Shown here one piece after another: positions 3,285-7,334 of a stretch of DNA of 7,334 bases. Where the stretch lies: IMG/VR virus record IMGVR_UViG_2639762982_000003. One strand, 5' to 3'. Numbering within the stretch: position 1 is the stretch's first letter; every line of letters starts with the position of its first letter. A program made the translations under genes and the position numbers. The notes below the pieces were generated by a model that saw only the letters and a program-made list of their open reading frames with translations, was not told where the DNA came from and did not search any database. Source of the DNA: a virus (Duplodnaviria > Heunggongvirae > Uroviricota > Caudoviricetes).

Positions 3285-3359
<75 letters not shown>

Positions 3360-3362
3360 ATA

Positions 3363-3438
<76 letters not shown>

Positions 3439-3440
3439 AC

Positions 3441-3517
3441 TGGACCGCCACCGGGGACTCGAACCTCGCACACTCAACTTAAAGGGTTGACGCTCTTTCC
3501 TGATGAGCTAGTGGCGG
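3441..3517 (-). tRNA. tRNA-like gene, anticodon loop CCUUUAA (UUU, Lys, in canonical register); non-canonical, possibly a pseudo-tRNA
   Basis: 77-nt cloverleaf: acceptor CCGCCAC/GTGGCGG, U8 A9, D-stem GCTC/GAGC, perfect 5-bp anticodon stem TCAAC/GTTGA, T-loop TTCGAGT, encoded CCA. Position 33 is C rather than the near-universal U, and the T-stem has an A-C mismatch. Confidence 0.5.
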
Positions 3518-3518
3518 C

Positions 3519-3594
3519 TGGTGGCCCTTGCTGGATTTGAACCAGCGACCTGGCGATTATGAGTCGCTCGCTCTCACCACTGAGCTAAAGGGCC
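3519..3594 (-). tRNA. tRNA with anticodon CAU, ileX/ileZ-like (tRNA-Ile2 read as AUA after lysidine modification, or elongator Met)
   Basis: 76-nt cloverleaf: acceptor GGCCCTT/AAGGGCC, D-stem GCTC/GAGC, anticodon loop CUCAUAA (CAU), T-stem GCTGG/CCAGC, T-loop TTCAAAT, discriminator A, encoded CCA. Closely resembles E. coli ileX as recalled. Separated from the next tRNA by 1 nt. Confidence 0.75.
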
Positions 3595-3805: not shown

Positions 3806-4478
3806 CACTTTGCTTTGAAAATGCCGCCTTTTGTTTTGAACGTGTTCTCATTACAAACAATAAAGCCTCACTATCAAGTCGGTGAAAAATGTGTTTCATT
3901 GCAACCCAGTGACGAGTAAATGTTTTGGACCAGTTTTTAGTTGTCACTCCCGCCAGTAATGCCAGCTCCTGGTATTCATAACCTTCCCCACCAAAAAGTT
4001 CTGCTTTTAATGCCTGCGCCGCCAGCCAGATTAATTTTTTCAGGCGTTCCTGCGTTTTCCCTGCAATTTTTCTGGTACCGGATTGAGTATTAAATTCATT
4101 CCACGCCCACTGTGTTATCGCGATCTGATATTCCCAACAAATACTCCCGCTGTAACACCACAACAACCAGGCTTTATGATGTTCTTCAAGAGACAGAACT
4201 GCCCGTCGCCATGATGATGTCGAAAACTCAACCTGACTTACCAGAGCAATTGATGAGCCTTTCGCCAGTGATTGTTTTCCCGGTATCGGTGGACTATCCC
4301 GCGTTATCATTCTTCCAGTCACTTCATCGCGGTACCGGATTTTTTTACGCCTGTAACGCCCTGTATCAAACATGGCATTCTCCTGCCAGGCTTCAAGCTG
4401 ACCTTTTGTTGCCCCACTCAAATCAGCGGTAGCGATAATGAGCTGCTCACGCACAAACTGTAAATACTGGTTATTCAT
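3789..4478 (-). CDS. putative late-gene antiterminator Q (Qin QuuQ/phage 82-like by position)
   Basis: 229-aa product from ATG 4476-4478 (track ORF starts 2 codons earlier at GTG) with GGAG upstream. Its ATG overlaps the rusA stop (ATGA). Sits immediately downstream of rusA and upstream of a PR'/tR'-like module, tRNAs and the lysis cassette, which is the canonical Q position. The family assignment rests on synteny; only two Cys are present. Confidence 0.6.
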   Translation of the reverse strand: MNNQYLQFVREQLIIATADLSGATKGQLEAWQENAMFDTGRYRRKKIRYRDEVTGRMITRDSPPIPGKQSLAKGSSIALVSQVEFSTSSWRRAVLSLEEHHKAWLLWCYSGSICWEYQIAITQWAWNEFNTQSGTRKIAGKTQERLKKLIWLAAQALKAELFGGEGYEYQELALLAGVTTKNWSKTFTRHWVAMKHIFHRLDSEALLFVMRTRSKQKAAFSKQSVAKVD

Positions 4479-6472: not shown

Positions 6473-6865
6473 CTACTGCCCTGTTTTAACGAAGTTTTTA
6501 AAGGAAACAACTGCCTGATAGGGGTTTGGTTGACAGCCAAACATATTATCGCAAAAAGGCTTGATGAAAATTCTTGAGGATCCATCTTCATTTGGCATTT
6601 TACTCACTTGATAAGCGAGGAATGGACTATTTGGAGAGGGATTATAAGTGGAAATTAGCGTGTCTGTCGCCGTTTGAATTTTCCATGAGGAATTATTAGC
6701 CAACCAGAATTGCGCTCGTTTCCAATAAAAGTCACATTGCTTTTCATCATTACATGTTAGTGGCTTCATTGCTTCTGCTTTCAACGCTGGATCGACCTTT
6801 GCTGCACACCCTCCCAACATTACTGTTGCAATCATTACACCTGCAACTAAAACAAGTTTCTTCAT
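6473..6865 (-). CDS. secreted lipoprotein, AT-rich moron-like cargo gene
   Basis: 130-aa ORF with ATG at 6863-6865 and GGGAG upstream. N-terminus MKKLVLVAGVMIATVMLGGC is a classic SPase II signal with lipobox LGGC. The mature part has four further Cys in two C-x5-C pairs. AT-rich relative to flanking genes and bracketed by two similar terminator hairpins. Confidence 0.7.
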   Translation of the reverse strand: MKKLVLVAGVMIATVMLGGCAAKVDPALKAEAMKPLTCNDEKQCDFYWKRAQFWLANNSSWKIQTATDTLISTYNPSPNSPFLAYQVSKMPNEDGSSRIFIKPFCDNMFGCQPNPYQAVVSFKNFVKTGQ

Positions 6866-6920
6866 CTCCCTGCCCCATCAATAAAAGTTCGGTTCTCTAA
6901 TAACTAGAGTTAATCAACGG

Positions 6921-6938
6921 AAAAAACGCCGAAGCGGG
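6921..6938 (-). terminator. weak terminator-like hairpin downstream of hokD (degenerate copy of the 6251-6273 element)
   Basis: On the minus strand: CCCGC-UUCG-GCG followed by six Ts. Only 3 bp can pair, so function is doubtful, but the sequence is nearly identical to the hairpin at 6260-6273. Confidence 0.3.
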
Positions 6939-7008
6939 TTAAGTGCGGGTGCGTTGAGGATGCCTGACACATCAGAGGTGGCGAGGGATTTCTCCCCCGC
7001 CAGGTCTC

Positions 7009-7164
7009 TTACTCCTCAGGTTCGTAAGCTGTGAAGACAGCGACCTCCGTCTGGCCGGTTCGGATTCGTACCTCGCAGAGGTCTTTCCTCGTTACCAGTA
7101 CCGTCACTATGACGGTTAAACAGATGACGATCAGGGCGATTAACATCGCCTTTTGCTGCTTCAT
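7009..7164 (-). CDS. hokD: Hok family type I toxin (HokD/RelF)
   Basis: 51-codon minus-strand ORF not in the track (below its length cutoff): ATG at 7162-7164, TAA at 7009-7011, AGGAGA 9 nt upstream. Translation MKQQKAMLIALIVICLTVIVTVLVTRKDLCEVRIRTGQTEVAVFTAYEPEE matches the Hok/Gef family and essentially E. coli HokD as recalled. Confidence 0.9.
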   Translation of the reverse strand: MKQQKAMLIALIVICLTVIVTVLVTRKDLCEVRIRTGQTEVAVFTAYEPEE

Positions 7165-7235
7165 AGCCTGCTTCTCCTGTCAACGCAAAGCAGAAGTGTC
7201 ACCTTCGGTGCGAAACAGAGATGTCATGCTTTGGT

Positions 7236-7334
7236 TCAGAGAATGCGTTTGACCGCCTCGCTATATACTTCCGAGCGTTCTCTTTTCCCAACAGAAATCA
7301 CGAAAACGACAACTTTCTCGTCTATAACCTGGTA
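7236..7334 (-). CDS. relE: RelE mRNA interferase toxin, 3' end only (gene continues beyond the window end)
   Basis: Minus-strand translation from the window edge gives YQVIDEKVVVFVISVGKRERSEVYSEAVKRIL followed by TGA at 7236-7238, matching the C-terminus of E. coli RelE as recalled. hokD follows 71 nt downstream, as in the relBE-hokD operon. Confidence 0.85.
   Translation of the reverse strand, partial: YQVIDEKVVVFVISVGKRERSEVYSEAVKRIL

Follow-up and report, generated by a model that had tools for sequence, protein, structure and literature searches.

hokD of a Qin-like prophage is probably a hok gene without its own control region, joined to relBE

The hokD gene of a Qin-like lambdoid prophage is probably a hok cassette without a 5′ control region that has become fused behind relBE, where it would be carried as a Sok-less and largely silent passenger, governed by the relB promoter and by the folding of its own mRNA. 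The gene lies near the right end of a DNA stretch of 7,334 nt (hereafter, the window) from the IMG/VR virus record IMGVR_UViG_2639762982_000003. Comparison of its sequence with that of intact relatives showed that the hok cassette is normal from the AGGAG motif at 7178 to the 3′ UTR, and that everything upstream of this point is a 57-nt tail of relBE.

Identity and genomic context of hokD

The coding sequence of hokD (relF) was placed by Pfam, RefSeq and alignment at positions 7009–7164 of the minus strand (51 aa; ATG at 7164, TAA at 7011–7009). Its Shine–Dalgarno sequence, AGGAG (7174–7178, minus strand), is the point at which homology to canonical hok loci begins. The 3′ end of relE, which is truncated by the window edge (7236–7334, minus strand; stop codon TGA 7238–7236, taken from the RefSeq annotation of near-identical loci), lies directly upstream on the same strand, and the junction has the sequence of the relBEF operon of Escherichia coli K-12.

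The predicted protein matched the Pfam family HOK_GEF (PF01848) over residues 6–47 (E = 2.1e-23; 82 bits, against a cutoff of 22). It also has the hallmarks of the Hok/Gef family, namely a length of about 50 aa, a hydrophobic N-terminal helix and the motifs TRK-LCE-R and EV-F-AYE, which are invariant columns of the alignment. A hokD gene of 51 codons behind relE had originally been predicted from the DNA letters, and the Pfam match and the RefSeq annotation of near-identical loci as relE plus hokD agreed with this prediction, all of whose coordinates were correct. The absence of hokD from the accompanying track of open reading frames (ORFs) was an effect of the 60-aa cutoff only; RefSeq annotates the gene there. 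The protein differs from that of K-12 (WP_000813254.1) by a single substitution, A23V, with GTA in place of GCA at window 7095–7097 (minus strand).

Knowledge of hokD/relF and of its place in the relB operon dates back to the 1980s; Gerdes et al. are said to have noted the homology of Hok with the relF product in 1986. Reportedly, hokD is the hok locus that has been rearranged.

Positions 6850–7334 of the window matched E. coli chromosomes, and the surroundings of hokD are those of a Qin-like lambdoid prophage, with genes for the Q antiterminator, RusA, a DUF968 protein and lysis functions. The 101 bases spanning the junction (7150–7250) were found at an identity of at least 99 % in 1198 records, and 1172 of the 5426 complete E. 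coli genomes contained them. In the Qin prophage of K-12, which carries relB, relE and hokD/relF, these bases are 100 % identical; gene order and leader are shared as well, and identity to window 6921–7334 is 98.8 %. The two differ from 6921 leftward, where the sequences diverge, and in that the terminator of the window is shortened and a lipoprotein-like ORF of 130 aa takes the place of the K-12 rem.

The terminator that follows hokD (6921–6938, minus strand), at which similarity to K-12 stops, consists of CCCGCTTCGGCG and six T residues, compared with CCCGCTTCGGCGGG and five T residues in K-12. A terminator scan of the window gave no match on either strand, and the same scan detected the intact hairpin in the Escherichia ruysiae locus L014. 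With the terminator shortened and the scan empty, transcription may read through into the next gene. This is the 130-aa ORF (6473–6865, minus strand), which has a lipoprotein-like signal (…LGGC), matched no Pfam family and is labelled as hypothetical in RefSeq. Farther away, at 3285–3594 (minus strand), the late region of the prophage contains a row of four neighbouring tRNA genes (Gly-tcc, Thr-tgt, Lys-ttt and Met/Ile-cat); in the closest complete genome (L001) just two tRNA genes are annotated at the equivalent place.

Leader organization of canonical hok loci

A scan of one genome per species yielded 79 hok loci, and 41 distinct leaders from the canonical set were combined in a profile. Nearly all of the 79 loci followed the same leader plan, in which mok starts either 57 nt upstream of hok and in frame with it, or 58 nt upstream in the +1 frame, possesses its own GAGG Shine–Dalgarno sequence and is translated through the hok start. 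The original prediction was right that hok genes are normally under the control of mok, Sok and fold-back pairing. In plasmid R1 the mok ATG occupies positions 116–118 and the hok ATG positions 174–176, and translation of mok has to proceed at least as far as the hok Shine–Dalgarno sequence (PMC9841398).

Intact loci of the hokD type were among the relatives recovered. Those of E. ruysiae (L014), of E. coli/Shigella (L008 and L011) and of an IncY phage-plasmid (L005) encode Hok proteins 92–98 % identical to HokD, and have the same 3′ UTR and fold-back element. Two of the intact loci, L014 and L006, encode an in-frame Mok of 70 aa and also have the downstream flank towards rem that is found in K-12. 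The IncY locus L005 is complete, with the tac element GGTGCTTGAGGC, a GAGG Shine–Dalgarno sequence and a +1-frame mok whose ATG precedes that of hok by 58 nt. Unlike the window, the intact hokD-type loci have kept a promoter, the tac sequence GGGTGCTTGAGG, mok at one of the two canonical distances (57 nt in frame, 58 nt in the +1 frame) and a Sok promoter. At hokD in the window, an own hok promoter, tac and ucb were all absent, and the tac sequence GGGTGCTTGAGG was found only in the relatives.

The comparison with hok/sok/mok (parB) of R1 gave a similar picture. The likeness lies in the Hok-family toxin itself (HokD is 41 % identical to the close R1-Hok relatives L003 and L004), in the block from the Shine–Dalgarno sequence to the AUG, in the 3′ fold-back element and in a conserved helix that buries the hok start; the difference is that hokD in the window is without its own promoter, tac, ucb, mok and sok.

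The breakpoint between the relBE tail and the hok cassette

When the profile of the 41 canonical leaders (nhmmer, 175 positions) was aligned to the window, only its last 17 positions (AGGAGAAGCAGGCTATG) matched, and positions 1–158 had no counterpart. The relatives form a mosaic around the same point. The IncY phage-plasmid of E. fergusonii (L005) matches the window at ~92 % from AGGAG through hokD and its 3′ UTR and not at all upstream, whereas plasmids of Klebsiella and Enterobacter (L003 and others) match at 97–98 % over relE, the small ORF and the Shine–Dalgarno sequence and then continue into a different hok gene. The mosaic alignment and the 17-position profile match together place the breakpoint at 7178|7179.

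To the relE side of this breakpoint lies the 57-nt relBE-linked tail (7179–7235, minus strand), which runs from the relE stop to ...GCGTTGACA and whose right end is a recurrent breakpoint. Behind relE this tail is 97–100 % identical in E. coli prophages, in plasmids of Klebsiella, Enterobacter and Citrobacter, and in Kluyvera. It showed no homology to hok leaders: a short-word blastn comparison of the segment 7235–7179 with the canonical leaders gave no significant similarity, and in gapped pairwise alignments with 13 canonical leaders, evaluated against shuffles, the best p value was 0.04, uncorrected for the 13 tests. An apparent GCTTTGCG match of the small-ORF segment to R1 was not significant and was dropped.

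The 15-codon ORF between relE and hokD

A short ORF with its TGA just 5′ of the hokD Shine–Dalgarno sequence had been reported between the two genes, and its coordinates were confirmed (7180–7227, minus strand; ATG 7227–7225, TGA 7182–7180). Its 15 codons (ATG ACA TCT CTG TTT CGC ACC GAA GGT GAC ACT TCT GCT TTG CGT, then TGA) specify the peptide MTSLFRTEGDTSALR, for which a text search of papers found no match. The ORF starts 8 nt past the relE stop, shares the reading frame of hokD (the two start codons are 63 nt apart) and ends 15 nt ahead of the hokD ATG, short of the helix that contains this AUG. No Shine–Dalgarno sequence was found for it, there being no purine-rich stretch before its start (CUGAACCAAAGC-AUG), so that it would be translatable only by ribosomes re-initiating 8 nt past the relE stop.

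The original prediction had compared this arrangement to the mok–hok coupling of plasmid loci in truncated form. Taken as a statement about descent, the comparison found no support: homology to hok stops at AGGAG (7178), the segment that contains the ORF is unlike the canonical leaders and, given the breakpoint at 7178|7179, the ORF falls entirely on the relBE side. It is therefore very unlikely that the ORF is a mok by descent, in frame as in hokC and the intact hokD loci and closed by a premature TGA, although its position (63 nt before hok, where mok would lie at 57 or 58 nt) and its frame, which is that of the in-frame Mok of E. ruysiae, are what such a remnant would have. Pairwise alignment, the 41-leader profile and short-word blastn all failed to connect the 57-nt segment significantly with hok leaders, and the GAGG Shine–Dalgarno sequence of mok is missing. 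Moreover, the segment is linked to relE and not to hok, since the tail recurs in front of six different hok cassettes and at three non-hok junctions.

The frames also differ from those of R1, where mok lies in the +1 frame, begins 58 nt upstream and extends across hok, whereas the 15-codon ORF is in frame and stops before the Shine–Dalgarno sequence. The +1 frame over hokD in the window is open at 7016–7183 (minus strand), contains no ATG and is closed upstream by the TGA at 7201–7199; it corresponds to the mok frame of R1 and of the IncY-plasmid relative L005, in which mok is full. A mok was not found upstream of hokD, the ORF there being in non-homologous sequence, without a Shine–Dalgarno sequence and terminated 15 nt ahead of hok. 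Any analogy of the small ORF with mok is at most functional and not genealogical.

An ORF of this length is mildly unusual for its surroundings. When the 71-nt spacer was shuffled 20,000 times with its dinucleotides preserved, an ATG ORF lying wholly within it reached 15 codons or more in 2 % of the shuffles and 10 codons or more in 5 %, in a test that was run after the ORF had been noticed. In all of the relE–hok junctions collected the ORF was intact (ATG, 15 codons, TGA), but these sequences are 90–100 % identical, so that its conservation carries little weight and gives no evidence of selection. The peptide variants were E8D, F5S, A13V, MTSLFRTEDEASVLR in L028 and MTFLNSGKGATSALR in the free-standing copy L004. 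These last two copies differ from the window at 5 nt and at 11 of 48 nt, respectively, and both are open; for the diverged L004 copy the chance of staying open was estimated at ~0.2. An open frame with a drifting peptide is the pattern that a leader peptide would show.

Sok antisense RNA

The Rfam sok model (RF01794), which covers the hok leader, matched the canonical loci with 117 bits in L014, 115 bits in L005 and 89 bits in R1 (L075). In positions 6700–7334 of the window it gave no match even at E ≤ 10, and it gave none in L003 or L004. Other Rfam matches on the window (isrK, a viral CITE and Yfr1) were at chance level and were set aside.

In canonical loci the −35 hexamer of the Sok promoter is the reverse complement of a short hairpin plus AAGGAG (TTGCCT, TTGACC or TTGCGC), and the −10 hexamer is the reverse complement of AGGTTAGCC (TAACCT or TAATCT). 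The corresponding pattern, TTGNNN-N16-18-TANNNT, was found on the antisense strand near hok in 30 of the 41 canonical leaders. It did not occur on the plus strand of the window between 7100 and 7334, where the best approximation was CTGTCA-N17-CACCTT, preceded by TG (7177–7205). A sigma-70 scan of positions 6850–7334 was likewise empty; as a control, the scan was applied to canonical loci, where it found the hok promoter and also missed real Sok promoters, and its empty result in the window therefore carries no weight.

The weak CTGTCA-N17-CACCTT match is what speaks for continued plus-strand transcription of a Sok-like antisense RNA across the hokD leader, and such an RNA is extremely improbable. 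The sok model recognizes canonical loci and not the window, the canonical Sok promoter hexamers and the entire Sok-complementary region have been replaced, a terminator-like site was found on neither strand, and there is no mok start region left for an antisense RNA to block. For Sok RNAs made by other hok loci there would similarly be nothing to bind here, because their target, the mok start region, is gone. It had originally been left undecided whether hokD is controlled by a Sok-like RNA or through the relBE promoter alone. The first of these options fell away, with the Sok gene, its promoter and its target absent from the sequence, and the second is in line with the relBEF transcript seen on published northern blots. 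As far as the sequence goes, the Sok question can be regarded as settled in the negative.

Structure of the hokD mRNA

The RNA from the relE stop to the T run of the terminator (328 nt) folded far better than shuffled sequences (z = −3.5). In its minimum free energy (MFE) fold the start codon of hokD is contained in a helix between 7159–7169 (5′ arm, minus strand) and 7026–7036 (3′ arm, CUUCACAGCUU, minus strand, within hokD). RNAalifold gave no useful consensus for 36 hok cassettes, and the AUG helix was therefore tested as a named structure. Across the 36 diverse cassettes 88 % of cells were paired, compared with 31–53 % when one arm was slid; three pairs showed compensatory changes, and no shuffle attained the observed pairing. 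A TACG motif (7023–7026, minus strand), formed by the Tyr codon TAC at 7026–7024 and the following G, adjoins the 3′ arm of this helix. A-to-I editing at the TACG motif, which changes Tyr to Cys, has been reported for hokC, hokD and hokE (PMC5630033).

Two elements of the 3′ UTR are present as in intact loci, a strong stem-loop at 7001–6980 and the fold-back element fbi (UCCUCAACGCACCC, 6947–6960, minus strand; with CCTCAACGCACCC at 6959–6947). The fbi sequence is conserved in canonical hokD loci that have tac (GGGTGCTTGAGG), its usual partner, which is absent from the window. In the MFE folds of the window and of K-12, fbi is instead predicted to pair with UGCGUUGA (7187–7180, including the stop codon of the small ORF) and with 7177–7175, the GGA of the Shine–Dalgarno sequence. 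The same pairing was predicted for L035, but not for L003, L028 and L088, which have other 3′ UTRs, and this predicted interaction is thus not conserved among relE–hok loci. The body of the hok cassette has in any case retained its 3′ fold-back element and a structured mRNA, as indicated by the z score of −3.5 and the covariation of the AUG helix.

Transcription and translation of hokD behind relBE

Northern blots with relB, relE and relF probes have revealed one full-length relBEF transcript, and once the relB promoter was deleted, relBEF mRNA was no longer induced and its 3′ portion no longer accumulated, indicating that there is no internal inducible promoter (Kasari 2013, PMC3598666). The relF part was the most abundant fragment after cleavage by toxins (PMC3598666). 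The relB promoter lies outside the window, and co-transcription of hokD is taken from these published blots and the promoter deletion. According to this literature, hokD has no transcript other than the relBEF mRNA, in which it is the third cistron and which is made from the relB promoter, repressed by RelB/RelE.

Within this mRNA, cuts were mapped in vivo at positions 569 and 594 for MazF and at position 564 for MqsR (Kasari 2013, Table S3; PMC3598666). On the window these sites correspond to 7224 and 7199 (MazF) and to 7229 (MqsR), in or beside the small ORF. RelE cleaves only in the ribosomal A site. The RelE cuts listed are at 513–552, all of them within relE and none in the small ORF or hokD (PMC3598666). 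That RelE cuts are listed only inside relE points to little translation downstream of that gene, the absence of cuts farther on being a negative primer extension result under RelE overproduction and, as such, a weak one.

In the R1 system, one chromosomal copy of hok suffices to kill when Sok is missing (PMC9841398), from which we infer that hokD, carried without Sok by roughly one in five E. coli genomes, must be poorly translated. Its own mRNA structure would keep hokD nearly untranslated, because no ribosome would cross its start region in the way that mok ribosomes do in intact loci. Some observations go against this reading. The small ORF is intact in all variants, including L004 and L028, and is rarer than expected by chance (~2 %), and a hairpin that engages the hokD Shine–Dalgarno sequence would be opened if the small ORF were translated.

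In an alternative that we consider rather unlikely, the small ORF is a working leader peptide that ties HokD synthesis to the translation of relE, as an analogue and not a relative of mok. Ribosomes would re-initiate at the ATG at 7227 after translating relE, melt the hairpin formed by UCUCUG in codons 3–4 of the small ORF (7221–7216) and the Shine–Dalgarno segment CAGGAGA, stop at the TGA at 7182–7180 and be handed over to hokD. The geometry, in which the ATG is separated from the relE stop by 8 nt and the hokD ATG from the TGA by 15 nt, would suit such a course. The hairpin is the MFE structure of the 116-nt leader, but it was not significantly more stable than those of shuffled sequences (z = −1.24; 25/200 shuffles). 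In the diverged L004 copy the best preserved part is formed by the first 12 nt of the ORF, which include this UCUCUG (or UUUCUG), and the retention of 15 codons in all variants while the peptide drifts would fit a role for translation rather than for its product; sequence diversity is, however, too low to show selection on the ORF. The mok gene of R1, for its part, needs translation only up to the hok Shine–Dalgarno sequence (PMC9841398).

Coupling of this kind would nevertheless face several obstacles. The small ORF has no Shine–Dalgarno sequence. A ribosome stopped at the TGA at 7182 would, from the known size of the ribosome footprint, shield the mRNA to ~7170; it would thus fall short of the AUG helix (7169–7159) and leave it closed, so that coupling would be weaker than with a true mok. 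RelE cuts, as noted, are listed neither in the small ORF nor in hokD, and efficient coupling without Sok should be toxic. Most probably the small ORF is just an incidental part of the relBE tail; at most it would act as a weak termination–reinitiation relay, and hokD itself would remain a poorly translated gene restrained by the relB promoter and its own folding.

relBE–hok composites and free-standing copies

The relBE tail ended sharply at ...GCGTTGACA (window 7179–7187; TTGACA) and was followed by six hok cassettes with 33–78 % pairwise aa identity, namely hokD, two R1-like types, those of L028 and L035, and a pndA-like one. The tail also led into three non-hok junctions (the tail-junction loci were L003, L028, L035, L088, L141, L116, L086 and L122). 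Composites on enterobacterial plasmids (IncHI1B, IncHI2 and IncF) share with the window relE and the 57-nt tail with its 15-codon ORF, and in them, too, hok follows TTGACA immediately; they differ in the hok cassette, the Hok proteins of the plasmid types L003 and L088 being 33–40 % identical to HokD. The two commonest composites were present in 171 and 292 PLSDB plasmid records, and the cassette of each was also found, 100 % identical from the Shine–Dalgarno sequence onward, in plasmids without relE. These junctions suggest either a discrete relBE unit or a recombination hot spot.

In K-12 an imperfect inverted repeat of ~37 nt was detected between the left edge of the relBE unit, upstream of the relB promoter (L002, ~3940–3975), and the segment corresponding to window 7170–7206, which comprises part of the tail and the hokD Shine–Dalgarno sequence. 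Its score was reached by 0 of 2000 shuffles; the left arm lies outside the window and, in plasmid contexts, is itself a hairpin (GTCCGCT...AGCGGAC).

The composites can also be read in another way, which we put forward tentatively and hold to be unlikely: relBE would be a discrete travelling unit of ~0.7 kb, bounded by the imperfect inverted repeat, whose right end, always at the same nucleotide, has become attached to at least six different hok cassettes. Under this alternative relBE–hok would be a maintained hybrid module and not a decayed remnant, with RelB-controlled transcription, perhaps assisted by a relay from relE through the small ORF to hok, taking the place of Sok in restraining a type I toxin.

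Several copies carry changes at or near the hok start. In L148, a relative of relE–hokD, AGGAG is changed to GGGGA; in L035, GGA has been lost from the hok Shine–Dalgarno sequence; and in L122 a deletion extends from TTGACA to about codon 30 of hokD. These lesions are independent of each other. The same insertion sequence (end TGTATGGGTCCACC...) was found at two sites in the 57-nt leader, in L085 at ~1288 and in L087 at ~1273, one of them after CAGGAGA and the other within the small ORF. These insertions recall the insertion elements that adjoin hokA, hokC and hokE in K-12. The recurrence of such lesions, the insertions included, is a hint that hok behind relBE is not entirely silent and is expressed enough to be counter-selected.

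A free-standing R1-like hok accompanied by a diverged copy of the 15-codon ORF was found in pUUH239.2 (L004, 1423–1548), with neither relE nor a leader recognized by the sok model. This hok adjoins a divergent DUF1778/GNAT toxin–antitoxin pair, and the frame of its small ORF is open upstream to give a 41-aa ORF. Of the L004 query, which contains this leader, at least 80 % was matched by 95 plasmid records.

Implications for the hok family

Little is new about hokD as a gene, which has long been known and lies in a known operon. What the present comparison adds is the exact breakpoint at 7178|7179, the assignment of the small ORF to the relBE side, where it is not a mok, and the finding that the Sok gene is truly absent. 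Should it hold that a single relBE tail has been combined with many hok cassettes, across hundreds of plasmids and roughly one in five E. coli genomes, there would be reason to reconsider the usual picture of hokD as a dead remnant, and relBE–hok would offer a simple test system for how Hok can be restrained without an antisense RNA.
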